Below are positions 8,338-63,672 of a DNA stretch of 64,000 nt, piece by piece; the stretch's first letter is position 1; each line of letters starts with the position of its first letter. Position numbers and translations under genes: made by a program. The notes under the pieces were generated by a model that saw only the letters and a list, made by a program, of their open reading frames with translations, did not search any database and was not told the origin of the DNA. Origin of the DNA: a virus (Duplodnaviria > Caudoviricetes); IMG/VR virus record IMGVR_UViG_3300013426_000028, positions 1-64,000 of that record. One strand, 5' to 3'.

Positions 8338-9384
8338 ATGGCAACAATTGATATTTTTAATCCACGTGTCTCTGTTGTGGTAAAAGGTTTAAGAGGCAAA
8401 GTAGTTGTAATTTACGGTACAAATGGTACTGGTAAAACTCGTAATATGACAAAAGCACCAAAACCATTAGTTCTAGCTGTTGAAAATGGTTTAAATGCTA
8501 TTAATGGTGTTCCTTATATCAATATTGATAAATGGGTAACATTTAAGCAAGTTGTAAATCAATTAACATCACCTTCTACAAGTGCTGCGGCTCATGAAAA
8601 ATATGAAACAATTATCATCGATGCTTTAAATGGCTTAGATACATTAGGTGCAGAATTCATTTGTAATAACTATGGAGTAAAAAGACTTCGTGACGGTAAT
8701 GACGGCTATGGTTTATGGCAAGAATATTCTCAAGAATTAGAAAAACAAATTAAGTTATTAACTGACTCCAATTATCTTGTTGTATTCTTAGCCCACGAAG
8801 GCGAACAAGAATTAATGGATTTAGTCGGTGAAAAATACACAAGATTATCCCCCAAAGGAGATAAACGTTTAGTAGAACCAATTATGGAACTTGCAGACAT
8901 CGTAGCATATGCGCAACCTCAACCAGACAAAGAAGACGGAACCCCAGTTAATTCGACTTTATACTTAAAAGGTAATAGAGCATTTAGAGCAAAAAGTAGA
9001 TTTGATTATATTACTCGTTCAATTCCAGAATGGTCATATGACAAATTTGAAAAAGCGGTTGCTGATGCAATTACTGCAGAAGAAGAAGCCACTAATACCA
9101 AAGCTATTACACGTGAAGAAGCTGTAAAGGTTGAAGAAAAAATTAAAGAGGAAGAAGAAAAATCAAAACTTCCGTTAGCAACATTAGTTGAACGAATTGG
9201 TATGATGTTACGTTCAATGCAACAAAAAGAAGGAAACCTTGAAACATATAAAGCAATTATGTTAGATGAATTAGGTACTGCAGAATTCAAATGTAATACA
9301 GCAACTGAAGCTCAAAGAGACCAAGTTGAATTACTATATAATGCTTTAGTTAAAAAAGGTTATAATAAAAAACAAGGAGCTTAA
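8338..9384 (+). CDS. AAA_24/Sak4-like P-loop ATPase
   Basis: Walker A YGTNGTGKT, Walker B IIIDA, G.GYG, FLAH, AKSRF. Confidence 0.8.
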   Translation: MATIDIFNPRVSVVVKGLRGKVVVIYGTNGTGKTRNMTKAPKPLVLAVENGLNAINGVPYINIDKWVTFKQVVNQLTSPSTSAAAHEKYETIIIDALNGLDTLGAEFICNNYGVKRLRDGNDGYGLWQEYSQELEKQIKLLTDSNYLVVFLAHEGEQELMDLVGEKYTRLSPKGDKRLVEPIMELADIVAYAQPQPDKEDGTPVNSTLYLKGNRAFRAKSRFDYITRSIPEWSYDKFEKAVADAITAEEEATNTKAITREEAVKVEEKIKEEEEKSKLPLATLVERIGMMLRSMQQKEGNLETYKAIMLDELGTAEFKCNTATEAQRDQVELLYNALVKKGYNKKQGA

Positions 9385-15141: not shown

Positions 15142-15169
15142 TTGACAATGGGGAATATTTCTATATAAT
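15142..15169 (+). promoter_or_regulatory. Promoter of the dnaE N-part
   Basis: TTGACA-N16-TATAAT. Confidence 0.75.
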
Positions 15170-45210: not shown

Positions 45211-45591
45211 ATGCTAATACCAAAGACCCCCAAATCCTTCAAAAACCCCGATGTCATCGGCATAAAATCGAATAAAAGTAATATTTTATTTGATATCTGC
45301 ATTTCCAAAGATCTTCCAGGATATATAATTTTAAAACCAGCTCCCTTAGGAACAATCGGATTATATGAGTTTATGCCTATATCTACATTCTTAGTAGTTA
45401 CGGATAATTCAAATATAACTCACGTGTCAATAGATATGGAATACGTTCCTCACGTACGTATACACACATACACATATACGTATGCAGATACACACACATA
45501 CGAGGAACCGCTTCCTATATCTCTAAAAGATAAAATTGCACTATCTTACATTAAAACTATCTCTCGTAAGAAAAGAAAGGAAAATAATTAA
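45211..45591 (+). CDS. Hypothetical protein containing an alternating purine-pyrimidine tract
   Basis: AAGGAGG RBS; HTYTYTY low-complexity segment. Confidence 0.45.
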   Translation: MLIPKTPKSFKNPDVIGIKSNKSNILFDICISKDLPGYIILKPAPLGTIGLYEFMPISTFLVVTDNSNITHVSIDMEYVPHVRIHTYTYTYADTHTYEEPLPISLKDKIALSYIKTISRKKRKENN

Positions 45592-45595
45592 GTCT

Positions 45596-46273
45596 ATGTC
45601 TAGTTCAGCAGTACAAAATCAACCAAATAATAATAACAACGATCAACCAGTCCGTCACATCAAACGCGGTCAATATAAAGACTACTCTCAACCCCTTAAC
45701 GGCATGACCCTCGAAGAGTCCAACAAGCTTATCACAGATAATCTCGCACTTGTGTTCTGGGTATTAAAAGAGAAGTTTCATTTTGATCCTTCCACGATGC
45801 AAGACTATGAAGATGTTGTGTCTCTCGGTATGCAAGGATTAGTCATCGCAGCGCGTCTCTATAATCCCGCATCAGGCTACAACTTTTCAACCTATGCAAC
45901 ACACTGCATCTCTTCTCAAATTCGCTCAGAGTATTTCCGTCGTAATCAAACGCTTAAAGCCACCCCCGAATTTGCCCCCGCTTACCTAGATGCCCCCCTC
46001 CCTCTTGAGACAGATCATGGCACCAAAAAAACGCTTCTCGATCTTCTCCCCGCCTCCCCATCTTCCGACCCTTCCACCACCCAAGACGCCTCAACCATAA
46101 TGGACTTCATAATCAACAATCCTATTCCAAATAAATCCACTTTCCTCTCCTACCTTCAAGGAACCCGCATTATAGACATAGCCAAACAAGAGTCCGTCTC
46201 TTCCACCGCCATCCAGAACCGCCTTAAAGTTTCCATATCCTATCTTCGCTCCATCTTCAACCCTTCTCACTAG
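45596..46273 (+). CDS. Phage RNA polymerase sigma-70-family factor
   Basis: Region 2 LITDNLALV..EDVVSLGMQGLVIAARLYNPASGYNFSTYATHCI; region 4 HTH IIDIAKQESVSSTAIQNRL. Confidence 0.85.
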   Translation: MSSSAVQNQPNNNNNDQPVRHIKRGQYKDYSQPLNGMTLEESNKLITDNLALVFWVLKEKFHFDPSTMQDYEDVVSLGMQGLVIAARLYNPASGYNFSTYATHCISSQIRSEYFRRNQTLKATPEFAPAYLDAPLPLETDHGTKKTLLDLLPASPSSDPSTTQDASTIMDFIINNPIPNKSTFLSYLQGTRIIDIAKQESVSSTAIQNRLKVSISYLRSIFNPSH

Positions 46274-49646: not shown

Positions 49647-50146
49647 TTTTGTGCCTGTGGTGTGAATCTGTTTAAATCTGTTTGAATCATTTAGATTCTG
49701 TGTTCATCTGGTGTGTCTCAATAGAGTATGATGATTCATTTTGCAATTAGATAAATTAAGAATCCAGATGATCTAAATAATCTAGATGAATCTGATGAAG
49801 CATCAAGAAAAAAATCTGGCCCTAGAATAAAAAGCTTCCTGCCTCATTAAAAAACGTCGCCCCATCAAACATTCGATTTATTTTCCATTTACATGGAGAA
49901 AAAACAAACTGAATCCCTTCCAGGTATAATTTAAGGGGACTCCGCGTTCTTGTCTGTTATTTAAAGAACTACCTTTAAATAAATCGTCTAAAATCGAAAA
50001 TAACTATATATAAACTCTTAGAAATTCCCAGAATCATTAAATTAATTATATAATAATTAAAAAGAACTAAAAAGAATTAAAAGAATCTTCCCTCCATCAA
50101 AAAAAGTATCCCTCTCAAAAAAAATAAAAAAAGTTTTTAAAACCTA

Positions 50147-50174
50147 TTGACTTATTTTTATATTCCTGTATACT
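50147..50174 (+). promoter_or_regulatory. Promoter with upstream A-tracts and no downstream ORF
   Basis: TTGACT-N16-TATACT followed by the ..AGTGTAA start motif seen at other promoters. Confidence 0.7.
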
Positions 50175-50180
50175 TATTAG

Positions 50181-50980
50181 TGTAAAGGGGGAAAGGAAAT
50201 GAACCTCCGAAGTACCCCTTACAAGTTCTTTGAAAAATCAATATCAGTCCATTATCATTTTGGATAAAAAAGAATTCATCACAGTGACGACGTCATAAAA
50301 GTACTAACTTAAACTGTAAAAAATAATCTGACAGTATAAACGAGGCGTCGGTACCGTGATGAACTCTTTTAAAAGCTAGTACGGAACTTGGCCAAATCCC
50401 GCTGATACTATTAAAATAACATTTATCATGTTTTCTCCAACCTATATTTAAATGAACCTTATCGGTTATTTTAATATCAAGGGAAATTGATGATGCAATG
50501 CAATACGCTATTAACCAAAATAATCAGCATAACTCAGTGAATCCCCAATTCACTTCCCGCACTACTTTCCAAAAGATTCATTCAACCCATCCCCTTAACA
50601 GGGATGCTATGAGGGCTCTGTTTAGAAGATCCAATAGGAACAGTTATTTATATCTACTTATAAATAATTAAACTCCTTATGGTCCCTCTTTAAATGTGCA
50701 AATTTATTAATCCCTTCTTCAGAGCTTTCATAGGGTCCTTGTAAGGCCCAATTTTAGTTTTTATAGATGGACTAGGTAGACAAATTAGGTAGACAAAGAG
50801 GACGCCTGTTTTGGACAGACAGGTTTCCTTGAAGAGCAGAGATCAGAACACCACACCACCTTCTAACCTGAAAGTATTTGATCAGTACCTTTTCTATCTC
50901 TGCTCCTTAAGGCAACTTATTTACCTTAGCTCACACCGTATTCACCACTTTTCCTCCTGGTAGTACGGTGTTTTCGTTTT
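50181..50980 (+). ncRNA. Candidate long (~800 nt) highly structured non-coding RNA
   Basis: Own promoter, boxA-like GTTCTTTGAAAA (50225), at least 7 long helices with G-U pairs on the + strand, terminal hairpin plus T-run, no ORF of 60 aa or more. Confidence 0.65.
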
Positions 50981-51942: not shown

Positions 51943-52668
51943 TTAGTTTTTACCTACAACTGATAATCTTACCGTTGGAAAGATAGGACACATCATATCA
52001 AAATAATTTGCTTTGTATTCTGAAGATTCTTTTTCTTCATCTGTTAGTCCTATGGCAACTCGTCTTAACATAGCATCTGGTTTAAAATCATCTGTGAGAA
52101 CATCTATATCTACAGGAGTACCATAGATTTTATTAATTGCGTCATAGATTTTATCTTCTCCAAATCGTTCTAGGTGTTCGTAATTAATAGCTAAGTTACC
52201 AAACACTTGTAGCTGAGGTACCCAGTTTTCTCTTGCTATAATTTCTTCTAATGGAAGCAAGACGTTGTTAATTGGAAATATAGGAAACACTTTTTTGCGC
52301 TTATCAATACGAGTTAAATCAATTAATAATTGTCGTGCTTCTAAAAGAGCTGATATAATAGATGAATCTTTTAACAGGAAATTATGACATCCTTCTAATC
52401 GATGACTGTCTTTTCTTTTTAATGCTCTTATATAAGATCTGGTAATTTGATTTAAGTCTCCTTGTATACCTAAAGAATGTACACGTTCTAATAAAGCTCC
52501 GACATGAAAGTTTCCATGGCCTTGTAAAAAATCATATTCAACTGCAACAAGCTGTTGATCCCAAGTCATAGTATTAACATAATCTTCTGTGATTTCATCA
52601 TTTAATTTAATGGAGTTATAGACTCTAACAATGTGTGTAATGATTTTGTATCTTAATTCGTTTTTCAT
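51943..52668 (-). CDS. Hypothetical protein
   Basis: AGGAGG RBS, TGnTATAAT promoter, AATAGGAACA leader motif. Confidence 0.65.
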   Translation of the reverse strand: MKNELRYKIITHIVRVYNSIKLNDEITEDYVNTMTWDQQLVAVEYDFLQGHGNFHVGALLERVHSLGIQGDLNQITRSYIRALKRKDSHRLEGCHNFLLKDSSIISALLEARQLLIDLTRIDKRKKVFPIFPINNVLLPLEEIIARENWVPQLQVFGNLAINYEHLERFGEDKIYDAINKIYGTPVDIDVLTDDFKPDAMLRRVAIGLTDEEKESSEYKANYFDMMCPIFPTVRLSVVGKN

Positions 52669-52775
52669 AAGTTTTCCTCCTAATACTTTTATTTGTTCCT
52701 ATTTGATTAATACCATTATACCACAAGTGTTGTCAGCACACAAGTGGTATAATGATTTTGTTTAATTAATTTGAA

Positions 52776-53042
52776 CTACCATTCACGATAATATTTTGTG
52801 TATGAAGTATTAGGATAAAGCTTAGAATCTTCTGCTTCTTCACATTCGGTAACAGTAATTTCAACATGATGAGTATGACATCTTGTTTCATCTGCCATTA
52901 CTTCATCTACTTTCTTCTTAAGAGCATCGGATACTTTTGAAAAGTTATCCATAGGTTCTGTTACTCTGAACTCAAGAGTTGGTTCGTTCATTTCATCACA
53001 ACTAACAATTTTACAACTTCCAATATAAACAATTTTTCTCAT
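52776..53042 (-). CDS. Hypothetical protein
   Basis: AGGAGG RBS. Confidence 0.6.
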   Translation of the reverse strand: MRKIVYIGSCKIVSCDEMNEPTLEFRVTEPMDNFSKVSDALKKKVDEVMADETRCHTHHVEITVTECEEAEDSKLYPNTSYTKYYREW

Positions 53043-53063
53043 TTTTATTTTTCCTCCTATTGT

Positions 53064-53342
53064 TTATTTATTAAGATATACTTTTTTGTCATTATAGCCT
53101 AGATCTTCAATAATCTCTGGTAAATGTTCTGTTCCGAATCCTAATGATTCATAATTGTTAAACCCTGCGACTTCGTCCATTTGAAGTTGTTCGTGCCATA
53201 CATTAAATATGTGAGCGTGATTGCCCTTGTCACAGACACAACAAGACCAACCTTCTTCTCTTCCCATATATTGTCCTGTCCAGACATCTCCAAATGCATC
53301 TTTTACCTTGTACCAGTGGCCTTTAATAAATTTGCTTTTCAT
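53064..53342 (-). CDS. Hypothetical protein
   Basis: AGGAGG RBS. Confidence 0.6.
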   Translation of the reverse strand: MKSKFIKGHWYKVKDAFGDVWTGQYMGREEGWSCCVCDKGNHAHIFNVWHEQLQMDEVAGFNNYESLGFGTEHLPEIIEDLGYNDKKVYLNK

Positions 53343-53403
53343 AACATATTTCCTCCTTTGTTTTAGTTATGATAGACTGTTCCTATTGAATTTTAAATTT
53401 TAA

Positions 53404-54177
53404 TTATTTAATAATACGAATCTTAAGTTGTTCTGGATATGATATACCTGCTACACTTAATACATCATAACAAATTTCTATGAATGATAAATCTTTATAT
53501 TCTTCATCGAACATACAAGCTCCACCATCATCTTCTTTCAATTTGTTTTTCCATATTTCTATATTCTCTTCTGTTATTTTATCTTGTCTTTCGGGATTAT
53601 TTTCATACACCTCATAATAAGCGTATGATTCATATCCTTCCTCATCATCTTCTTCACTTAAATCTGAAGTTCCTTCACAAATATGAAAAATCCAATGTTC
53701 ATGTTCATAATCATTAGAATCTCCTACAGCTATCCAGAAATCTGTTTTAGTATTTGGACGTCCTTCAATTTTCATCTGAGATAATTTTTTCATATTTTCT
53801 TGTTCTTTATAGACATCATTTATATCCACATTAAATGCTTGATGAGCAATCAATTCAAGCCAATCAATATAATATGTTTGAATATTTTGATTATTTTTAC
53901 ATTCTTCTAAAAGTTCTGCGAATGATTTACTATAAACATCTTGTAAACCATAAATTTCATTTAAGTCATCAAGAATATAATTATCATAATATATTTCTAA
54001 TCTATCTAATACAGCTGCTGTATTATCAAAACGATCCTTTTCGATTTTACCAAGATTAGCACCTTGTAAATCTTCTAAACTGTAATATTGTATTCCTTCT
54101 ACTTCTTCCTGTTTGATTAATTCGAAGTCCATATCTGATAACAACATAGCACAAATTTTTGCATAATTCTTTTTCAT
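53404..54177 (-). CDS. Acidic hypothetical protein
   Basis: AGGAGG RBS; DLQGANLG.I and DGG motifs. Confidence 0.6.
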   Translation of the reverse strand: MKKNYAKICAMLLSDMDFELIKQEEVEGIQYYSLEDLQGANLGKIEKDRFDNTAAVLDRLEIYYDNYILDDLNEIYGLQDVYSKSFAELLEECKNNQNIQTYYIDWLELIAHQAFNVDINDVYKEQENMKKLSQMKIEGRPNTKTDFWIAVGDSNDYEHEHWIFHICEGTSDLSEEDDEEGYESYAYYEVYENNPERQDKITEENIEIWKNKLKEDDGGACMFDEEYKDLSFIEICYDVLSVAGISYPEQLKIRIIK

Positions 54178-54241
54178 ACCTTATTTCCTCCTTTGTATGA
54201 TTTAATAAACGACTGTTCCTATTTAATTTTTAAATTCTTGT

Positions 54242-54379
54242 TTATCTTATATTTAACAATAAATACAAAATTAATGTTAAAAGTACAAGAAAAACTGAAT
54301 ATCCTTCTCTTTTTGCCTGTTTACATATAAAATATATTACAGCACCGAAAAAGACCAATAAGAAAATTGCAACTTCCAT
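54242..54379 (-). CDS. Small two-TM membrane peptide
   Basis: AAGGAGGG RBS before ATG 54379. Confidence 0.5.
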   Translation of the reverse strand: MEVAIFLLVFFGAVIYFICKQAKREGYSVFLVLLTLILYLLLNIR

Positions 54380-54405
54380 ATTGCACGTCCCTCCTTTCTT
54401 TTTAA

Positions 54406-54492
54406 TTATTGAGGTGATAATCCACACCAAAGCACGAAAAACAAAAGTAATAATAAAGCTAAAACTAAATAAGTATAATCTTCATTACTCAT
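54406..54492 (-). CDS. 28-aa single-TM peptide (not in ORF track)
   Basis: AAGGAG RBS; MSNEDYTYLVLALLLLLFFVLWCGLSPQ. Confidence 0.45.
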   Translation of the reverse strand: MSNEDYTYLVLALLLLLFFVLWCGLSPQ

Positions 54493-54513
54493 AATATTTT
54501 CTCCTTTCTTTTA

Positions 54514-55143
54514 TTAATGTTGATGGAAGAAAGTCATTTGACCTAACATCATCTTCCAACAATTTTTACAAGTCTTACAACTTCCTGGACATTGATATCC
54601 GCCTGTTGGTACATTTGCTTTAAATTCAGATGATTTTTTGAATTCGACATATGTAACAGGAAGTAAATATTTATTCTTCACTGTTTTATTATATTCTTCA
54701 TCCCACATACTTAAAACAATTTTAAGATTTACAGGAAGACTTTCAATGCCATGTTTGTCAATCCATTCATTGATTAATTCCCATTTCTTAGTAAATGCTA
54801 AGAATGTTGTTTGAGGACAAGCTAACGCAACTCTGACCATACCGTCTAAATATTGTTCGTCAACTATATCTCCTGATGAATGCCATCTGAAATATTTATA
54901 TGTAACATCGTCATTGTTTAAATATTTAATAACCTCATCAAAGAACGCTACTTTATCTTCATTATATGAATTGTAATTATCCATATGAGATTTTTTAACG
55001 TTTGGATATAAATGAGTTCCTCTACGAGCGTAGCAAAGTTTTGCACAAGGTGCATTTCTTCTACAAGTGATGATTGGTGGAAGATTTAAGGTTGGAACCT
55101 TATCTCCTAATTTACTATTTGATAAACTGATGTGTACTAACAT
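54514..55143 (-). CDS. GP88-family (radical-SAM-related) protein
   Basis: NSKLG, TC....PC...CYA, FRWHSSGD, FTK, C-terminal CPGSC..C..CW. Confidence 0.7.
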   Translation of the reverse strand: MLVHISLSNSKLGDKVPTLNLPPIITCRRNAPCAKLCYARRGTHLYPNVKKSHMDNYNSYNEDKVAFFDEVIKYLNNDDVTYKYFRWHSSGDIVDEQYLDGMVRVALACPQTTFLAFTKKWELINEWIDKHGIESLPVNLKIVLSMWDEEYNKTVKNKYLLPVTYVEFKKSSEFKANVPTGGYQCPGSCKTCKNCWKMMLGQMTFFHQH

Positions 55144-55218
55144 AACATTTTTCCTCCTTATATAAAATTTTGTTATGAATCGACTCGACTGTTCCTATTT
55201 AATTTTTAATTTATATGT

Positions 55219-56043
55219 TTATTCTATTAAAGAATAATACTCTATATGTCCTTCTTTGTCAATAAACTTAATACGATATTTGCTAATATTAACTAATTTT
55301 GTAACTTCTTCTGCAAATGTTCTAAAATCATCTTCTGAATAAGCATAATTTTCAGGCATAAATACATCTCGGTAATATTGATATAATTTTTGATCTTTAG
55401 ATTCATCAGCCTCTATTACATATTTTTTATCATTATTGTCATCATCTTTTTTATCGAATTCACCGTAATTTTCTTCATATTCAAATTGGTCTAAAATATA
55501 ATTTACTCCAAAATAAGAAACATACGCTTCGTGATGTTCTGTGTCAATAGTAATTTCAACATCACCTTCTGACCATGCTTGTGTTTCGTTCATATCTTTA
55601 TCAAAGATGCCAATTAAACCATCATTTCTGTCATAAGTGAATTCTCCATCTTCAGCCATTCTATTTTCAATAAGTTTTAATGCTTCGTCAGATAACCCGA
55701 TTTCTATTTTAAGATAATTATAAAAATTCTGACAAATAGGTCCTCGTAAATTTTCTGGAATATGATTTCCATTATGTAAATTATTGTCTTCACTAAATTG
55801 TTGCCAATATCCTTCATAAGTGATATTGGTTCTTTTAGCAAATCTCAAGAAAGCTTCTATGGCAATCTGTTTAGCATTTGCTTTTGGAAATTTTTCTATC
55901 ATCTTATTCATTAAATATAATATAATAAGAGTATTAACCGCAGCACTGTCTGTATAGGCTGACCAGTGTTGATACATATTTGCAACTCTTTCTTCTGTTT
56001 TTCCATCATAAACTGTAATAACTAATCTTTGTCCCATAATCAT
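55219..56043 (-). CDS. Hypothetical phage protein
   Basis: MGQRL...Y.HWSAYT, RNDGLI. Confidence 0.6.
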   Translation of the reverse strand: MIMGQRLVITVYDGKTEERVANMYQHWSAYTDSAAVNTLIILYLMNKMIEKFPKANAKQIAIEAFLRFAKRTNITYEGYWQQFSEDNNLHNGNHIPENLRGPICQNFYNYLKIEIGLSDEALKLIENRMAEDGEFTYDRNDGLIGIFDKDMNETQAWSEGDVEITIDTEHHEAYVSYFGVNYILDQFEYEENYGEFDKKDDDNNDKKYVIEADESKDQKLYQYYRDVFMPENYAYSEDDFRTFAEEVTKLVNISKYRIKFIDKEGHIEYYSLIE

Positions 56044-56109
56044 TTTCCTCTTTTCTTTTAAATTTTTGGGAAGCCTACATGGCTTTGTTCCTATTTAATT
56101 TTAACATTT

Positions 56110-56409
56110 TTATTTCAATAGTTCAAGAATTCTTTGCTTATATTCTGATTCTTTACACCATTGATTTGGCCCACCACGAAAATCTGTCAACGATTCTGCT
56201 GTTCTGTACATTGCTAAACCATTTACTGGTTCTGTTGTGATGTAAACAATCTTTCCATTATCTTCGTTTTGAATAAAGCCAATACATCCAACTTTTTGAT
56301 AGCAAGTAACATCATCACGCAAATGAAATGTTAGATTTTTACAATCTCTAAACATATATTTGATAGCACGTGTAGATTTTCCTTTGTTTGGTAATAAATA
56401 ATTTTTCAT
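56110..56409 (-). CDS. Hypothetical phage protein
   Basis: GC.GFI...YRTA...DF.GG.N. Confidence 0.6.
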   Translation of the reverse strand: MKNYLLPNKGKSTRAIKYMFRDCKNLTFHLRDDVTCYQKVGCIGFIQNEDNGKIVYITTEPVNGLAMYRTAESLTDFRGGPNQWCKESEYKQRILELLK

Positions 56410-56411
56410 CT

Positions 56412-57326
56412 TTATTTTCCTCCTTTCTTTTCTATTTCAACTTGGTTTAAAATTTCTTCTAAATCAATTTGATTCAATAAATAAGGGCCTTTTCTTAATT
56501 TAACATAAGATTTTAAATCCTTTATTACAGGTAAATTATACGTTGCTTCACCTATATTTTGTACTTCTTCGAAGTGTCTTATTGTGGCTGTATCAACACT
56601 TATATTAATACCACTTTCGTATGCTTCAAAATGATATAATTTATTTTTATAAACGAATAAGATGAACGCACATCCCCAAGCCCAATGAGAAGGTGAAGAA
56701 ATATCTCGAATTAAAGTCATATTATTTATTGTATTTTCGGTAAAATAACATTTGAGTCTATTTCTTTTATATTCGCTATATGCTTCTTGATTTATCATTT
56801 TTTCTTTTTGATAATTATAATCAATTATCAAACTTAAATATTTATTCAGTAATTCAAGAGTTTCTTTGACATCTGACAACATTTGACTATATGAATTTAA
56901 AGGAAAATAATCAAACGAAAAATCTTTTAAATTAATAAATATTTCGTTATGTTTTGGAGCAGGTGTTCTGATATATAGCCAAAATCCTTCTTTATTGTGT
57001 CTTTCTATTGTTGCCATATAAATAGATTCTAAAATAGGATATTGTTCTATTAAACGAGAAGTTAATCTAAAATCTATAATTTGATTAGTTTCTATTTGCT
57101 TTTTTAATTTTTGTACTTGACCACTATTAATAATTTGCTCTTCTAATTTCATAATTTCTTTTGCTAATATTTGATTAGTTTTAAGTACTTCTAACTCGCT
57201 TTGTTCAAAATCATTGTATTTTAGGTCTATGTTTTTGATTGCTTCGCATTTTTCTATTTCGCAAGTTTCTTTAAAGTGTGTTATTTCTTCATAAGTTTGT
57301 TTTGTAATTTTATCATATAAATTCAT
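56412..57326 (-). CDS. Hypothetical protein
   Basis: AGGAGG RBS. Confidence 0.6.
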   Translation of the reverse strand: MNLYDKITKQTYEEITHFKETCEIEKCEAIKNIDLKYNDFEQSELEVLKTNQILAKEIMKLEEQIINSGQVQKLKKQIETNQIIDFRLTSRLIEQYPILESIYMATIERHNKEGFWLYIRTPAPKHNEIFINLKDFSFDYFPLNSYSQMLSDVKETLELLNKYLSLIIDYNYQKEKMINQEAYSEYKRNRLKCYFTENTINNMTLIRDISSPSHWAWGCAFILFVYKNKLYHFEAYESGINISVDTATIRHFEEVQNIGEATYNLPVIKDLKSYVKLRKGPYLLNQIDLEEILNQVEIEKKGGK

Positions 57327-57350
57327 AACTTTTTCCTCCTTTCTTTAGAA

Positions 57351-57638
57351 CTAGTCAGCATAACCTGCCGCTAGTTCTAATAAATACCATTTATCCATTT
57401 GATCAATCTCTTCCCAGGATTTTTCTCTTCTTAAAGCGTGTAACATTTCAACATAGCAATCAGGATTAAGATTATTAGAATCTTTTAATCCTAAATAACT
57501 TGCGTGACTGCATAATTGTTCAAATTCTTCGTCATCAATACTGTTATCAAATAAACATTGTACTGAATTAGCAATGGTAATATCCCATACACTAATATTC
57601 TTTTCGTTTAAGACTTCTAATTTTTGTTTGTAATTCAT
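57351..57638 (-). CDS. Hypothetical protein
   Basis: AGGAGG RBS. Confidence 0.6.
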   Translation of the reverse strand: MNYKQKLEVLNEKNISVWDITIANSVQCLFDNSIDDEEFEQLCSHASYLGLKDSNNLNPDCYVEMLHALRREKSWEEIDQMDKWYLLELAAGYAD

Positions 57639-57709
57639 AATTATTTTCCTCCTATATATGAATTTAACGACTGTTCCTATTGATTTATGTATTAAAATGA
57701 ATAATAAAA

Positions 57710-58171
57710 TTATTTACTTAATAAGCGACGTATTCTTCCTATTACTTGCGGTATCAATCTATCATTGATATATGCAGCAGAATATTTATTTTGAACATCA
57801 TCTATTTTTGCTTTTTCTGTAATGTCAGAATATCCTTGTTCAAAAAGAAGCGAAACTTGTCTTAATTTATTATACGTTGATATGTAGTCATATAATTCAT
57901 CAAGTTCTTCTTCTGTTAAAGGTGTTGCTTCCATTGTTTTTCTAAATTCTGTTTGTGTAAATAATCCTTGAGAATAATAATCAGGATATCCTTCAGGACG
58001 ACCTAATATGACCATATTGAGATAGTCCCAATGTGAAGATTTTTCATCTCGTCCTTTAACAAATTGAGGTTCTCTTAACCAATATCTGCGTCCAATTTTA
58101 TTACGACCTAATAAATAATGATTGACTCCTAAATAAACTTTTGTTTGTTTTAACATTTTTCTTTTACGCAT
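57710..58171 (-). CDS. Hypothetical protein, paralog of 59787..60275
   Basis: YLLG..K.G..YWL..P, GYS..TE.AKID, IN..L.P. Confidence 0.65.
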   Translation of the reverse strand: MRKRKMLKQTKVYLGVNHYLLGRNKIGRRYWLREPQFVKGRDEKSSHWDYLNMVILGRPEGYPDYYSQGLFTQTEFRKTMEATPLTEEELDELYDYISTYNKLRQVSLLFEQGYSDITEKAKIDDVQNKYSAAYINDRLIPQVIGRIRRLLSK

Positions 58172-58207
58172 ATTTTTTTCCTCCTATTTAATTAATTAAA
58201 AGAGAGA

Positions 58208-58681
58208 TTATCCGAAGACAATCTCTCCAAATAAAGCCCATTGGATAATGAAATCTCCACTTTCAGCATCAGCATAACAACCAAGATAATCTTCAATATC
58301 ATCATATTTAGAGTGGGACATTTCTTGTCCAAGACCTTCTAACACTCTATTGAGAGTCAACTTCCAAGGATCTCCTTCGACTCCTTCTTCATTATTTAAA
58401 TCTGTTACACCTTCTTCTTCTGCATCTTCAAATTCAATATATCCTCCATTCCATAGAATATAAGCAGCTATTTCTACAGTAGAACAATATTCATCTTCAG
58501 GATGTTCTGCTTTATATTTCTTTTCCCATTTAGTCCAATTTTCTGAAGCGTTGTCAAGCATTGCCCAATAACCAATTCCACCTTCAAGTGCAATAGCCAT
58601 AACATCACACAAATTGTCTTGTGTAATTTCAACTGTTTTTGTAATAGTGATTTTTTTAGTTTCTACGTTTTTCATAATCAT
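58208..58681 (-). CDS. Hypothetical phage protein
   Basis: ALEGGIGYW...DA...D.IIQ.ALFGEIVFG. Confidence 0.65.
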   Translation of the reverse strand: MIMKNVETKKITITKTVEITQDNLCDVMAIALEGGIGYWAMLDNASENWTKWEKKYKAEHPEDEYCSTVEIAAYILWNGGYIEFEDAEEEGVTDLNNEEGVEGDPWKLTLNRVLEGLGQEMSHSKYDDIEDYLGCYADAESGDFIIQWALFGEIVFG

Positions 58682-58727
58682 TTTTCCTCGATTCTTTGAT
58701 TTTTGTTCCTATTTAGTTTTAATGTTC

Positions 58728-59000
58728 CTATTTAATTTGTTCTTTTAGTTTTTTGATTTCTCTTTGCATACGATCCATATTGTCAACTACACCGTTTGTG
58801 TATTCAACAATTTTTCTTTCGTTATATTCTTCTAAATCTTCATTACGGCAATAAGGACAAACTCCTCTTGTACCATAATGATAAGCGTGATATGGATCAT
58901 AAAGACCATATTCATCTTCGTAACAGAATCGTTCTTCTTCAAGATCATCTTCTGTCATAAAATGTTCACAATTTGGACAAAAATATATCATTTTGTTCAC
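58728..59000 (-). CDS. Zinc-ribbon protein
   Basis: CPNC...CPYC; GTG start. Confidence 0.6.
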   Translation of the reverse strand: MNKMIYFCPNCEHFMTEDDLEEERFCYEDEYGLYDPYHAYHYGTRGVCPYCRNEDLEEYNERKIVEYTNGVVDNMDRMQREIKKLKEQIK

Positions 59001-59009
59001 CGCCTTTCT

Positions 59010-59468
59010 TTATTTAACAGCAAGAATATCTTTAATATTTTTATTAAAGACTTCTGGAGTTTCTTTCTTAACCCATTGAGAAGATTGAGTAACTCCCATA
59101 GCTTCTTCTTTTGTTATTGGATTACCATCAAAATAATAACCAATAACTTTTGGACGATGAAGGAAGATTTTTGATGTTGTCATTCGGATATATGTTTCAC
59201 CTTTATTTTCAATCATCCATCTATTTTTCCATTCTCCCCAAGGCAAGACTTCTTTAATTTCACCTACCATTCCAATTGCTTGTCTTTTTTCAATAACAGA
59301 TTTAATATTAGAATATCTAACACCAAATCTTACTACAGATTGTACAACTTTTGTAATAACGTGTCCTTTAAAATTTTTGTTTGGAGTAATGTTTGTTTGA
59401 TATGTTACTTGAACATAAGCTCCTTGATGTTTGTTTGAAATAATATTTAATAATTCTTGTTTTTCCAT
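59010..59468 (-). CDS. Hypothetical phage protein
   Basis: R.GV.YSNI, LPWGEW; own promoter TTTACA-N17-TATAAT near 59497..59525. Confidence 0.6.
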   Translation of the reverse strand: MEKQELLNIISNKHQGAYVQVTYQTNITPNKNFKGHVITKVVQSVVRFGVRYSNIKSVIEKRQAIGMVGEIKEVLPWGEWKNRWMIENKGETYIRMTTSKIFLHRPKVIGYYFDGNPITKEEAMGVTQSSQWVKKETPEVFNKNIKDILAVK

Positions 59469-59532
59469 GATAATTTTTCCTCTCTTTCTATATATATTAT
59501 ATCATGTTTAATAATGTTTGTAAAGACAAAGA

Positions 59533-59790
59533 CTATCCTAAATAGATAGCCTTGTCTTTGTCGTCTAAAATCATTAAGTCGTGATTTATGGCTTCATAAT
59601 ATTCTCTGGTTGAAGAACCTTCTTCTTTTTCAATACTTTTAATTGTTTCTCCTGAATAATATAAAGCATGATATCCGTTGGCTTCTTCATCATCTGTGAC
59701 AAATATCACATAATCGCCGTGACCTTTTCGAATTTCTTCTCTAAGATATTTATATAAATCTTCGACTGTTAACGCTCCACATTTTGTCAT
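59533..59790 (-). CDS. Hypothetical protein
   Basis: DDEE.NGYH; AGGAGGTG RBS. Confidence 0.6.
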   Translation of the reverse strand: MTKCGALTVEDLYKYLREEIRKGHGDYVIFVTDDEEANGYHALYYSGETIKSIEKEEGSSTREYYEAINHDLMILDDKDKAIYLG

Positions 59791-60275
59791 TTTCTTTCAC
59801 CTCCTAACAAATTGTCAATACGTTCGAATATTGCTGGTAACAAAGTTTTATTAATACAATTCGCAAAATCTTCGTTTTTTAATACATCAATTTTTGCTGC
59901 TTCTGTTTGATGACTATAACCTCGATGTAATATTTCTGCTGTTGTTATTAAATTATAACACGACATCATATAATCAATTAATTGATATTTTTCATTTTCA
60001 TTTAAAGTAGTTTCTACAAAAAACTTATCAAATGAGTATATGGCGAAGCCTGTCGTATTATTTAAAAATAAATAATTAAAATGAGTATAAAAATCAATCT
60101 CTCTGCTTAATTCAGAATTACGATTGTTAGATAAAATATCTACACAGCCACAATTCCAATACTCATGCCAATCGCACACCCATTCAGGTGCTTGTAGCCA
60201 ATATTTTTTGCCTTCTTTATCCTTTCCTAATAAATAAAACTTTTTTCCACGCCAATAAATTACTTTCTTTTTCAT
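59787..60275 (-). CDS. Hypothetical protein, paralog of 57710..58171
   Basis: GGAGGTG RBS before ATG 60275; shared motifs. Confidence 0.65.
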   Translation of the reverse strand: MKKKVIYWRGKKFYLLGKDKEGKKYWLQAPEWVCDWHEYWNCGCVDILSNNRNSELSREIDFYTHFNYLFLNNTTGFAIYSFDKFFVETTLNENEKYQLIDYMMSCYNLITTAEILHRGYSHQTEAAKIDVLKNEDFANCINKTLLPAIFERIDNLLGGERK

Positions 60276-60294
60276 AATTTTCACCTCCTTCCTT

Positions 60295-62736
60295 TTATCC
60301 TCTACAACAAAGAGCACCATATTGAGAATGAATTGATGTTTCATCAACATTTCCTGTTTCTTGTGCCCATTGTAATAAAGCTTGCACAATTTCAGCATCA
60401 GGATTACTATTACATAATCCGTGAACTTGTCTTATAGAAAACTTATTATCAATAGAACCATTTTGAGAAAGTTCTATTGTAAAATATGGTTCAGACAAAT
60501 TACTATTTTTTCTGAAAAACAATATTGCTGTATGTTTGTTTGCAAACGTTTCTTGATAAGAGCTTACACAATGATGTAAGATTTTTCCTTCTGTGGATAA
60601 ATCTTCTACTTTTTCAGGAACTAAAATAGTAAATTCATCATTGCTCCAAGCAAATTTCTTTTGTAATATTTCCTTCCAAGGTTTATATCTTTCATTTAAT
60701 AGTTTGGATTGGTCAGCACTGATTATTTGTTTAAAAGCATCATAATTTTCCGACATAAAATTATGAAGATAATGAATTTTCATTTTAAGATCTGATTGTA
60801 GAATTGCTTGTTTTAAACAATAAACAGAAATTTGTGGAAAATGTTTTGTAACACATTCACAAACATATGACAAATTATTATTTTTAAAATCTTCTTTTGT
60901 TGTTGGAAAATCAATTGGAATTAATTTAATTTTTTCCTTCATTTGATAATAATCATATAATTCTGATAATTTTGCCACGTCGGATGCACTAATTTTATTT
61001 AATATTCGAATAATTTCAGAATCTGAAAATCCTTGTTCTGGAATTATAATGTTATAAAATGTCATAATATTAAGTATCAAATCTTTTACATATAAATGAT
61101 GACCTTTGTCACAAATCAGATTTTTAAACATTTCTAACGTTATATATTTACCATATTTTTTAGCAATTTGTTTTTTAGATAATGTTTTTCTATTTGAAGC
61201 AATTCTACAATATCCATAATTATAACAAGAAGGATAATTTGTTATGGACATGTTTCCTTTTAAAATATTAATCAAATAATAAAATAATTCTGCATGAAAA
61301 TCAGTACAAACATAATTTTTATCGAAAATTGTTGCATCTTTTATAAAATCTTCGTAATTTTTCTTACTTAAATAACATTGTTCATACATTTTAGTCTTTT
61401 GTATATCACAAGCAGTATCAAATAATAATTGTGTCACTCGCGACGCTGTACGAGAGTTAGCAATATTTGTTGAATAAAACAATTTTCTTGCCTCTATAAA
61501 TTCATTAACGTATGTAGAACCATAATGCTTAATAAAACTTTCATATGTCATATCTTTATAGTATAAAGGATTAAACAAAGGCTCTAATATTTTTTGATAT
61601 ATTAATTCTCCAATAGTAAAATCTTTATTATAATAAGCATAAGAATAATGACCTTTTTTACAATAAGAGTTATTAATGCTATACGAAGACAAAATTTCTG
61701 CAAAACTATTATTTGGAAACATTGAATTAAAAATGTAATTTAAACCATGAATTTCTTGAATCTCAGAAATATGTTCTTGAATACAATTTATAATTTGTTG
61801 AAAACTCTGTACATCTGAATAATTAACACTATTGAAAGTTTGATATTTATTGGTTTTATCAATTGTTAATTCTCCTTGTGGAGAAGCGAGAAAACATTCG
61901 CAGTTTCCTGTCTTTTTGTCATATACGTGTAATATTATATTTCTCCAATAGTTTTTATTATACATTAAAAGATACACATTATCTTGATCAGATTCAATAT
62001 GTAATATATTGTTTGATTCAATCAATTCTTTTATTTTGTTTTGAAACATGTCTTGGTATGTTAACAATTTTGATTTTTGAATTGTTTTATGTGCAAATTT
62101 CGTTTTGTTTGGATGTTTAATACATTCAATAAATGTTGCAATAGGAAACATTTCATTATAATCTACAGAGTGATTTATTTGCCACCAATTTTTTAATACA
62201 GTTAAATCAAAACCTTGTTCCTTCAATATTTTTGTTGAAAAAGGTGATAAACGTCCAAATGGATATTTATCACCTTGATAAGAATCTATTGTATTTATAT
62301 TTACAAATCTAATATCTTGGGTATTGGATGCATTACTAATTTTCCAAGATCTTTCTTTTGGTTCAACAAAACGTTTGTTTGAATCATACATTTCCCAATC
62401 ATTTGTAATATAAAACATAGGTTCATTACGATATAAATAAGGAAATGCCTTTCTATTTGTAACATAGGAGTTAAACAAATATATGCCAACACCCTTTTTA
62501 TTATTAATAGTACATTTTTCAATGAAAATATAGTTTTTAGAAGCATTTTTAATAGGAAATAATAAAGCATAATCTTTAAAATCTTCTAATACTAGTTGTC
62601 CTTGTTTATCATAAATTTTTCCTGCTGGTGTTACTGTATACATTGGTAATTGGCATAATTGTTCGTGTGTTTCAACTTCTACCTCTCTTAAATTAGGCAT
62701 GTTGTTAAATGTGTTTACTTTAATTTCTTTATTCAT
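60295..62736 (-). CDS. Large protein with C-terminal PcfJ-like domain
   Basis: P....DL..EG..LHHCV.SY, I.F.RK....PYFTIE, Q..G..N. Confidence 0.7.
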   Translation of the reverse strand: MNKEIKVNTFNNMPNLREVEVETHEQLCQLPMYTVTPAGKIYDKQGQLVLEDFKDYALLFPIKNASKNYIFIEKCTINNKKGVGIYLFNSYVTNRKAFPYLYRNEPMFYITNDWEMYDSNKRFVEPKERSWKISNASNTQDIRFVNINTIDSYQGDKYPFGRLSPFSTKILKEQGFDLTVLKNWWQINHSVDYNEMFPIATFIECIKHPNKTKFAHKTIQKSKLLTYQDMFQNKIKELIESNNILHIESDQDNVYLLMYNKNYWRNIILHVYDKKTGNCECFLASPQGELTIDKTNKYQTFNSVNYSDVQSFQQIINCIQEHISEIQEIHGLNYIFNSMFPNNSFAEILSSYSINNSYCKKGHYSYAYYNKDFTIGELIYQKILEPLFNPLYYKDMTYESFIKHYGSTYVNEFIEARKLFYSTNIANSRTASRVTQLLFDTACDIQKTKMYEQCYLSKKNYEDFIKDATIFDKNYVCTDFHAELFYYLINILKGNMSITNYPSCYNYGYCRIASNRKTLSKKQIAKKYGKYITLEMFKNLICDKGHHLYVKDLILNIMTFYNIIIPEQGFSDSEIIRILNKISASDVAKLSELYDYYQMKEKIKLIPIDFPTTKEDFKNNNLSYVCECVTKHFPQISVYCLKQAILQSDLKMKIHYLHNFMSENYDAFKQIISADQSKLLNERYKPWKEILQKKFAWSNDEFTILVPEKVEDLSTEGKILHHCVSSYQETFANKHTAILFFRKNSNLSEPYFTIELSQNGSIDNKFSIRQVHGLCNSNPDAEIVQALLQWAQETGNVDETSIHSQYGALCCRG

Positions 62737-62832
62737 AATTTTTCCTCCAATTTTTCCTTTTTCAAGGGATAAGAATATTTTTATGGAGAAAATATTCAAA
62801 ACCTTGTTCCTATTTAATTTTCAATTTAAAGA

Positions 62833-63399
62833 TTAATAATCACAGTCTTCGTCTTCATCATAATCGTCATAATCATCTTCATCATAATCTTCGCAACATT
62901 CCATTCTTTCCTCCTGAAGAGCTTTTTCAACTCTTTCTTTTAATATGACATCTAAATCTTCTTGAGATAATTTAGATTTTAGATCATTACAATTTGCAAT
63001 TTCTTTACCTTCGTGGTCATAAGCAATTTTACCTTTGACTAGAATTTCAATTCCATTATCTAACTTAAAGCTATGATCTGGAATCATTTCTGCTTCTACG
63101 AATTGTTGAGCAATATTACATTGCATATAGACTTGAGACATATTCATTCCCATTGAAGCATAAAGATTTAACATCTTTTCTTTATCTTCTGCGGAGCTTG
63201 CAAATCCAATTAACATTTCTGTTCTAGGATCATAAACTGGAATTAATTCACCTGCATCAAGCATTTTAATAGTATCTAAAATACCTTTTTGAGGCATTTC
63301 TTCATATTTTTTTAATAAAGCTTCTTTAGCAGCTTTCTTTTCTGCTTCTTTTCTTTCTTCTGCTGCTCTTTTTAAATTTTCTAATACTGTGTTTTTCAT
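62833..63399 (-). CDS. Hypothetical protein with acidic tail
   Basis: AGGAGG RBS. Confidence 0.6.
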   Translation of the reverse strand: MKNTVLENLKRAAEERKEAEKKAAKEALLKKYEEMPQKGILDTIKMLDAGELIPVYDPRTEMLIGFASSAEDKEKMLNLYASMGMNMSQVYMQCNIAQQFVEAEMIPDHSFKLDNGIEILVKGKIAYDHEGKEIANCNDLKSKLSQEDLDVILKERVEKALQEERMECCEDYDEDDYDDYDEDEDCDY

Positions 63400-63465
63400 A
63401 ACTGTTTTCCTCCTATAATATAAATGTTATGATGTTCCTATTGAGTTATTGTTCCTATTTAACGA

Positions 63466-63672
63466 TTACGCTACTATTTCATATAGTTTAATATCGTAAT
63501 TCCATTCCTCTTTGCCTTCTGCTACCATTATAGCCATATGATAACATTCTAATTGAAAGTATGAAATTTGTCTAATAAATTTATGACACTCTTCAACAGA
63601 GTTATAATATTTAGTTTGTAATAAATATGCATCTGTTTCTTCTTCGTAAATTTCTACAAAATATCTTTTCAT
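63466..63672 (-). CDS. Hypothetical protein
   Basis: GGAGGTG RBS. Confidence 0.55.
   Translation of the reverse strand: MKRYFVEIYEEETDAYLLQTKYYNSVEECHKFIRQISYFQLECYHMAIMVAEGKEEWNYDIKLYEIVA

Follow-up and report, generated by a model that had tools for sequence, protein, structure and literature searches.

A selected, strand-oriented ten-nucleotide box marks the expression units of an accessory gene block in an SPbeta-like gut phage

Introduction

What is the function of a ten-nucleotide motif that stands, always in the same orientation, at the head of one small gene unit after another? The question is raised by the window analysed here, the first 64 kb (64,000 nucleotides) of IMG/VR record IMGVR_UViG_3300013426_000028 (95,642 bp; G000 hereafter), which comes from an uncultured SPbeta-like gut phage. 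The motif, AATAGGAACA (hereafter the box), had been noticed in an initial annotation of the window, which took it for an RNA-level protein-binding or processing site with a long plus-strand RNA as decoy or scaffold, and which named stoperator-like DNA sites and the recombination points of a gene-cassette array as alternatives. We report that the box is a real, selected cis signal that marks the heads of the expression units of an 11-kb accessory block whose genes are almost all ORFans, and we weigh what might read it.

Results and Discussion

Number, placement and sequence of the box

Exact searching of both strands found 12 copies of the box in the window, against 0.22 expected by chance and a maximum of 2 in 100 shuffles, and none in the remaining ~31 kb of the 95.6-kb contig. 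One copy lies on the plus strand, at 50633; the other eleven lie on the minus strand and, as the initial annotation had stated, at gene junctions. A 30-nt weight matrix built from these eleven sites found no degenerate minus-strand copies, and its single extra above-threshold site, at 9146 on the plus strand, is of the chance type. All eleven minus-strand copies lie in intergenic spacers, in the order stop codon, box, Shine-Dalgarno (SD) sequence. They share the orientation of the genes and head nine small gene units, which are listed here together with the pairings of their leaders; an anti-AUG arm is a leader segment that pairs with the start-codon region.

52694..52703, minus strand: box copy 1, heading the 241-aa gene 51943-52668; about +4 to +13 of a sigma-A transcript
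53378..53387, minus strand: box copy 2, heading the unit 53064-53342 and 52776-53042; anti-AUG arm 53366-53372 pairs with 53339-53345
54214..54223, minus strand: box copy 3, heading gene 53404-54177; anti-AUG arm 54195-54200 pairs with 54174-54179
55190..55199, minus strand: box copy 4, heading gene 54514-55143 (GP88 family); anti-AUG arm 55171-55177 pairs with 55141-55147
56086..56095, minus strand: box copy 5, heading gene 55219-56043; conserved 5-bp hairpin 56071-56085, then weak CCCA/UGGG pairing with the start region
57672..57681, minus strand: box copy 6, heading the unit 57351-57638, 56412-57326 and 56110-56409; 8-bp anti-AUG arm 57657-57664 pairs with 57632-57639
58704..58732, minus strand: tandem box copies 7 and 8, heading gene 58208-58681
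62805..62814, minus strand: box copy 9, heading the PcfJ-domain gene (start near 62736); anti-SD stretch 62784-62792 can pair with the SD 62740-62749, or fold locally
63433..63459, minus strand: tandem box copies 10 and 11, heading gene 62833-63399; anti-AUG arm 63426-63432 pairs with 63396-63402

The box mostly starts 6-28 nt past the upstream stop codon. The exceptions are the copy at 58723, which abuts or overlaps the stop, and that at 52694, where the gap is 72 nt because a promoter sits between. The distance from box end to SD ranges from 13 to 56 nt. From 63.5 down to 52.7 kb, nearly all spacers of more than 45 nt contain a box, the exceptions being those preceding 59010-59468 and 54242-54430. 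No box occurs at junctions whose spacers measure 36 nt or less, and the box-bearing unit heads have spacers of 46-107 nt.

The consensus reads AAAATT(A/C)-AATAGGAACA, its A/T-rich 5' extension being looser than the core. The form AAATT(A/C), described earlier as frequent, was found at 6 of the 11 minus-strand copies, and on the 3' side GTCG follows at three copies and GTCT at one. At six sites the A/T flank reads (T/G/A)AAAAT, a -10-like hexamer ending 2 nt before the core. The information spans only ~17-21 nt, with no conserved block 17 bp upstream. Two unit heads carry tandem boxes, whose starts are 19 nt (58704/58723) and 17 nt (63433/63450) apart.

Conservation of the box in a close relative

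Scanning genome contigs for the tandem-copy pattern identified a relative, G006, whose contig (G006:C1, CAKPJO010000001.1, 138,726 bp) is binned in a 1.9-Mb gut metagenome-assembled genome labelled "uncultured Bacilli". It is collinear with G000 and 87-93% identical to it. All eleven minus-strand copies are letter-perfect in G006, with 0 changes in 110 positions, whereas elsewhere in these spacers ~10% of the columns differ between the two phages; at the spacer rate the probability of no change in any box is ~2e-5. The lone "difference" reported by the aligner within a box was an artefact of gap placement. Variation is seen in the flanks, at positions -1 to -3 and +1 to +3, with ATTA becoming ATCA or ATAA upstream, and GTCG becoming GTTG and GTCT becoming TTCT downstream. 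Since the immediate flanks change and the core does not, the 10-mer itself is the selected unit.

Two SD sequences of the minus strand, at 53052-53061 and 58179-58188, read AATAGGAGGA and agree with the box in its first seven letters. That at 58179 comes after a terminator-like hairpin and is kept in G006; that at 53052 is not kept.

The comparison with G006 bears directly on the suggestion that the boxes are recombination points of a cassette array, in other words short homologies or scars for the gain and loss of accessory genes, with any regulation secondary. The ORFans of the block are missing from more distant relatives, as this would predict, and two differences in gene content separate the blocks of G000 and G006 (window 56412-57326 and 63462-63466; G006:C1 73710-73988 and 80146-80589). 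The first concerns a 147-aa gene present only in G006. One end of this indel falls exactly at the 5' edge of the box at 63450, but its other end is an SD junction without a box. In the second, a 304-aa gene is swapped for a 92-aa gene in G006, and both ends lie at SD junctions where there is no box. One of the four breakpoints is thus at a box edge, and the 10-mer has stayed perfect while its flanks drifted, which argues for a sequence-specific function and not for mere homology. We consider an origin of the boxes as cassette junctions very unlikely. The PeSL repeats in the hyperplastic regions of T4-type phages offer a partial parallel, since there too a repeated regulatory element precedes each ORFan and, as here, an indel may end at the repeat. 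PeSLs, however, are sigma-70 early promoters with a stem-loop, whereas the box is not a sigma-A promoter and most of the breakpoints lie off it.

Restriction of the box to one phage lineage

In the rest of the 1.9-Mb host-bin genome ~13 exact matches to AATAGGAACA occur, where base composition alone would give ~8. The 12 copies examined lie on either strand and none has the extension; ten lie in stop-free frames across the full 310 nt examined, two in long partial frames and one in neither. As these copies are chance-like, nearly all coding and devoid of the extension, the signal is private to the phage and a host regulon is unlikely, and it follows that the phage should encode the reader. Host sigma-H, LexA (Cheo box) and other host regulons were accordingly rejected, the partial likenesses to their sites not being common to all boxes. 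A CsrA site was likewise rejected, no CsrA having been found in the phage or in the host bin, which is incomplete.

Scans of IMG/VR with box 16-mers and 18-mers gave single chance matches only, and a 20-mer found nothing in the metagenome collection. Tandem-box patterns in the metagenome, genome and viral collections mostly retrieved coding tandem repeats (Ile-Gly-Thr type), with G006 as the sole true relative. Relatives sought through single block proteins or through the phage sigma factor described below were not found, and a literature search for the motif returned unrelated primers only. Two more distant phages, G005 (IMGVR_UViG_3300028591_000100, 154.7 kb, 100% complete) and G367:C94 (contig 94 of G367), have a polymerase ~65-67% identical to that of G000, and show neither box enrichment nor a sigma of the type found here.

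The single plus-strand copy requires separate treatment.

50633..50642, plus strand: lone plus-strand box copy, inside a conserved non-coding stretch; probably coincidental and outside the system

This copy had been proposed to serve as a decoy or scaffold within a long RNA. It exists as described, but it has no A/T-rich extension, scores 14.5 bits with the matrix against 21-35 for the minus-strand copies, occurs at a frequency at chance level, and reads TATAGGAACA in G006 despite highly conserved surroundings, while all 110 minus-copy positions are unchanged. Being at chance level, unextended and substituted in the relative, it lends no support to the decoy idea, which we regard as improbable. 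As to the surrounding DNA, the non-coding stretch 50340-50975 (plus coordinates) is ~93-95% identical to G006 and includes a hairpin with a UUUUCCUCC loop; positions 50140-50340, where the promoter of the "long RNA" was supposed to lie, do not align in register with G006.

A phage sigma factor as candidate reader

If the reader is encoded by the phage, the following gene is the candidate that we favour.

45596..46273, plus strand: phage sigma-70-family gene with regions 2 and 4, SigK/E/H-like; candidate reader of the box

The open reading frame as listed starts with TTG at 45536, and the 225-aa form present in the protein collection implies, by arithmetic, a start 20 codons later, near 45596. 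The product matches PF04542 with 33.9 bits, above the cut-off, is SigK/E/H-like by NCBIfam, and matches TIGR02937 over residues 63-238. It is rare, occurring in two protein clusters only, and its own cluster has entries on 20 contigs. Both the box and this sigma are found in G000 and G006, and neither is found in G005 or G367:C94.

The distribution of host-type promoters and terminators in the block is also informative.

59496..59553, minus strand: terminator-like hairpin, then sigma-A promoter TTTACA-17-TGaTATAAT; the sole box-less unit start in the block
58201..58228, minus strand: 12-bp terminator-like hairpin, inside the block
52715..52743, minus strand: sigma-A-type promoter TTGTGT-17-TGgTATAAT, conserved in G006; coordinates hand-derived from offsets

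Sigma-A-type promoters adjoin only the box at 52694 and perhaps that at 56086 (TTGAAC-17 with an extended -10), and 9 of the 11 sites are without sigma-A hexamers. A sigma-A-like TTGACA-17-TATTAT upstream of 55190 is probably non-functional, its -10 being TGTTAT in G006. Downstream of the hairpin at 58201..58228 no recognisable sigma-A promoter was found for the genes until 52.7 kb. That most box units have no consistent sigma-A promoter, although terminator-like hairpins lie inside the block, counts in favour of a promoter function for the box. So does its position, which in G005 is taken by near-identical sigma-A promoters heading the accessory units. At 52.7 kb the initial annotation was borne out, in that the box at 52694 lies downstream of a TGnTATAAT -10 and is transcribed: because the TTGTGT-17-TGgTATAAT promoter lies upstream, with its start 3-4 nt before the box, this box occupies about +4 to +13 of the transcript. 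A direct repeat, ACTTGTG(T/G), at 52720-52750 on the minus strand flanks the -35 and the extended -10 of this promoter, and may be the operator of another factor.

Based on these observations, we tentatively favour the box as a single-block promoter that has no -35 element, or as a promoter-proximal box, for the phage's own sigma. The host RNA polymerase core carrying the phage sigma (45596-46273) would read the box as DNA, transcription would start inside the box or a few nucleotides after it, and each unit would give rise to a middle-class transcript whose leader carries an anti-AUG hairpin. That the box acts in DNA, which protein reads it and where the transcripts start are points that we infer. 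A promoter-type DNA signal nevertheless seems somewhat more likely than action in RNA, since the box is a sharp, unstructured and letter-perfect 10-mer which is phage-private and co-occurs with a private sigma.

Single-block promoters for phage sigmas have precedents in those of T4 gp55 (TATAAATA) and phiEco32 gp36 (TAATGTATA). Like the box, these are short, near-invariant, oriented elements, directly upstream of many genes and without a -35, and here too the phage encodes a divergent sigma; the box is missing from the two relatives that do not have the sigma. The differences are that the box sequence is unrelated, that its conservation peaks 3' of the A/T hexamer, that the sigma seems to keep region 4, that the box units carry start-codon-occluding hairpins, and that reader and starts are here only predicted.

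Several observations weigh against a sigma-read promoter. The strongest conservation is in the core, 3' of the -10-like (T/G/A)AAAAT hexamer. A sigma that seems to keep region 4 would be expected to have a -35 partner, yet none is conserved. Tandem copies spaced by 17 and 19 nt look more like sites of a binding protein than like a pair of promoters, the box at 52694 lies inside a sigma-A transcript, and sigma and box occur together in a single lineage, against two that have neither. The leader hairpins described below, by their enrichment, point instead to control at the RNA level.

Other promoter roles were examined and rejected. The box ends 25-36 nt before the ATG in five units, and nothing is conserved 17 nt downstream of it; a -35 or MotA-type role is excluded because a start ~30 nt downstream would fall after the SD. 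The sequence TCATA, which often follows the box, is excluded as its -10 partner by a spacing that varies from 0 to 13 nt.

The phage has a second possible reader in its YonO-type two-barrel RNA polymerase, for which another element seems better suited. A ~40-nt element occurs in two identical plus-strand copies at G000 contig positions 82169-82208 and 89707-89746, ahead of the exonuclease gene (yonJ-like) and of the portal region. An identical 5' change, GTTACGCAGG to TGTAACGGGG, is seen in both G006 copies, with a small stem retained, and the 3' part is partly recognisable upstream of the G005 exonuclease. SPbeta has the arrangement P_YonO-yonK-yonJ (exonuclease), and no consensus promoter is known for the YonO enzyme (PMC5467207). 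Synteny with this arrangement suggests that the ~40-nt element may serve the YonO-type polymerase as a late promoter. No box precedes the exonuclease, terminase or portal genes in G000. As the ~40-nt element fits the YonO-type polymerase better, the box is left for the sigma, and the polymerase is the less likely reader of the box.

If the box is indeed a sigma promoter, it would provide a directly testable promoter/sigma pair from an uncultured phage of gut Bacilli, and SPbeta-like phages would have a three-class transcription programme served by host sigma-A, a phage sigma and a YonO-type polymerase. To our knowledge, the non-host promoters of these phages are still undefined. Phages are well known to use factors of their own making to read start or control signals, and this strategy would here appear in a new lineage.

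Leader hairpins of the box units

The hairpins of the box leaders are new here, and are the most interesting addition to the earlier observation, which had recorded TCATA at variable distance after the box. TCATA follows five copies, at 0-13 nt. Leader folding showed that it pairs, as the 5' arm of a hairpin, with the start-codon region and leaves the SD in a 15-23-nt loop. The arm/start pairs are TCATAAC/GTTATGA (twice), TCATAC/GTATGA, CATAACA/TGTTATG and AATTCATA/TATGAATT. Each arm extends whichever way suits the start context of its own gene, and the arms change in step with the start region. Five box units have anti-AUG stems of 6-8 bp, all of which reach at least 7 bp in G006. Using as comparison the other genes with spacers of at least 40 nt in the complete genome of G006, perfect AUG-covering stems of at least 7 bp were found in 5 of 9 box units and in 2 of the 57 genes compared (Fisher P = 2.6e-4). 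The gap from box to arm is 0, 5, 7, 12 or 13 nt. One further unit (62805) has a 9-nt anti-SD stretch instead, and one (56086) has weak pairing; the only change that G006 shows in the 56086 leader hairpin falls in the loop. The box itself is predicted to be unpaired (0.65-0.92).

These leaders give substance to the RNA-level part of the earlier proposal, as the box is oriented, confined to junctions, in transcript sense and followed by hairpins that hide the AUG or the SD; the decoy part did not hold. The box could then be a site in the mRNA leader bound by a translational regulator of the phage, or the target of an endoribonuclease, acting together with the downstream hairpin. It always lies in transcript sense between stop codon and SD. 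There is no terminator between the 63.4-kb boxes and the upstream operon, whose stop codon is only 6 nt away, and at 52.7 kb the sigma-A start lies just 3-4 nt upstream, so that both would be carried in RNA. The unpaired state of the box, the excess of anti-AUG stems (5/9 against 2/57, plus the unit with the 9-nt anti-SD) and the tandem copies, which fit cooperative binding, agree with this as well. On the other hand, a letter-perfect, unstructured 10-nt site is unusual for the RNA-binding proteins and nucleases of bacteria and phages, and both the box-to-arm distance (0-13 nt) and the box-to-SD distance (13-56 nt) are variable. No RNA-binding protein or nuclease was recognised among the block genes, CsrA was found neither in the phage nor in the host bin, and the supposed decoy copy at 50633 is not conserved. 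We hold action of the box in RNA to be a possible but fairly unlikely explanation.

In a more specific form, seven or more accessory genes would make up one regulon, each with its start codon or SD locked in a hairpin, and a phage protein would switch them by taking hold of the box in their mRNAs; this we rate as rather unlikely. Such a regulon might be a multi-gene version of Mu Com/mom-type activation or repression, without a homologue of the known regulators, a suggestion to which we give similarly little weight. Both Mu Com/mom and T4 RegA/RegB resemble the present case in that a short element is shared by a set of phage mRNAs, upstream of a start-hiding hairpin. RegA binds at sites overlapping the AUG, and RegB cleaves the SD at GGAG. 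The present case differs from these systems in that the spacing between box and hairpin is not fixed and no RNA-binding protein was identified in the block. If the box does act in RNA, the box and its anti-AUG hairpins would constitute a new translational regulon. Either way, in DNA or in RNA, box and hairpins delimit an ORFan accessory block regulated as one set, possibly of counter-defence genes.

The box as a DNA operator

A phage DNA-binding protein could also use the box as an oriented operator or roadblock, repressing the 52.7-kb sigma-A promoter and blocking read-through into the units. The sites lie between genes, are asymmetric and all face the same way with respect to transcription; one of them overlaps +4 to +13 of a sigma-A promoter, tandem pairs occur, and the box is phage-private and under strict selection. 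A comparable element is present in SPbeta, where MrpR binds SPBRE (PMC10516654). The phages are of the same broad type, sharing the YonO polymerase, DnaE and RecD2, and SPBRE is, like the box, a non-palindromic element (~15 bp) in ~10 copies, which is co-oriented with genes and lies just upstream of the SD. However, SPBRE in SPbeta apparently lies within host-type promoter regions, by our own reading, whereas 9 of 11 boxes are not built into sigma-A hexamers. Searches by tblastn with SPbeta YopR, YopP, AimR, YopQ and YopO against G000, G006:C1 and G005 gave nothing at E <= 0.01, a negative at the level of sequence only. With no YopR/MrpR, AimR or YopO homologue detected, the MrpR/arbitrium module was rejected, and the box fails as an SPBRE-type element, being outside sigma-A promoters and without a detected MrpR homologue.

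One tyrosine-recombinase-like protein was found in G006 (G006:C1 119840-120859, plus strand). It is a divergent protein of 339 aa with a SAM-like N-terminus and PF00589, its gene follows the holin gene, and it lies in a part of the genome that is missing from the G000 record. It has no similarity to YopR. The catalytic-type residues R, H-x-x-R, W and Y are seemingly kept, as judged by eye from a pairwise alignment, and the protein looks like an active integrase or resolvase and not like an MrpR-type repressor. As it is the only protein of its kind here and seems to keep these residues, it also speaks against an operator bound by such a repressor.

More SPBRE-like than the box are the sigma-A promoters of G005, of which ~11 near-identical copies (TTGAC..., then TTCTGCTATAATATAA) head early or accessory units.

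43457, 45644, 50208, 52245, 62572, 65060, 71943 and 80909 of G005, minus strand: examples of the conserved sigma-A promoters

These 11 promoters are an SPBRE-like promoter/operator set, the positional counterpart of the AATAGGAACA box.

The stoperators of L5 and other Cluster A phages, which are bound by the gp71 repressor and had been named as an alternative, share with the box their asymmetry, a short intergenic location, a single orientation and one copy at a promoter. Stoperators are genome-wide and serve prophage immunity, whereas the box occurs in a single accessory block only and is not at the main lytic promoters. All minus-strand boxes fall within 52.7-63.5 kb, with none at the conserved TTGACTTTT...TATAATAAAT promoters, so that the spread seen in L5 was not observed. 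Neither the sigma-A promoters of the replication arm nor that at 59.5 kb has a box, and the box is limited to 11 kb. We therefore regard a DNA operator or roadblock as unlikely, though its L5-like geometry keeps it in contention, and retain the phage sigma as the favoured reader; the probability left over from the four readings belongs to something else.

Genome context

The nearest named phages are SPbeta-like phages of Brevibacillus, Thomasclavelia, Mammaliicoccus and Staphylococcus. The plus-strand arm of G000 (1-44 kb) encodes a DnaB-like protein, a split DnaE, RecD2 and other replication proteins. The minus-strand arm runs from 80.6 down to 51.9 kb, starting with the YonO-type polymerase and ending with the box block, and the packaging genes begin near 86 kb on the plus strand. 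The polymerase matches PF05183 and is 28% identical to SPbeta yonO (E 5e-26). In G000 it occupies contig positions 76758-80112 (minus strand) as two frames of 556 aa and 391 aa around a 508-nt non-coding insert, which may be an intron. It is split likewise in G005, and is a single open frame of 1000 aa in G367:C94, where it is 67% identical. Directly downstream in G000 lies an IscB gene (RRXRR and HNH), which is missing from G006. An 834-aa gene was also considered as the YonO polymerase and was rejected, its sole domain being a C-terminal PcfJ. A Protein Atlas look-up of the 241-aa protein gave no usable match, and Rfam and tRNA scans of the window gave none.

The replication arm has strongly conserved sigma-A promoters of the form TTGACTTTT-N-TATAATAAATAGTG, at window positions 15164, 21434, 33323, 42238 and 43853 of the plus strand. 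The extended box (TTAAATAGGAACA) has in its 5' part the same AAATAG that follows the -10 of these promoters, which may be a coincidence.

Two related inserts of 360-420 nt, at G000 contig positions 87440-87858 and 88639-88997, break terminase-like frames. These inserts have sequence blocks in common and are probably group I introns. A gene for an HNH homing endonuclease (85138-86820) lies near these terminase inserts.

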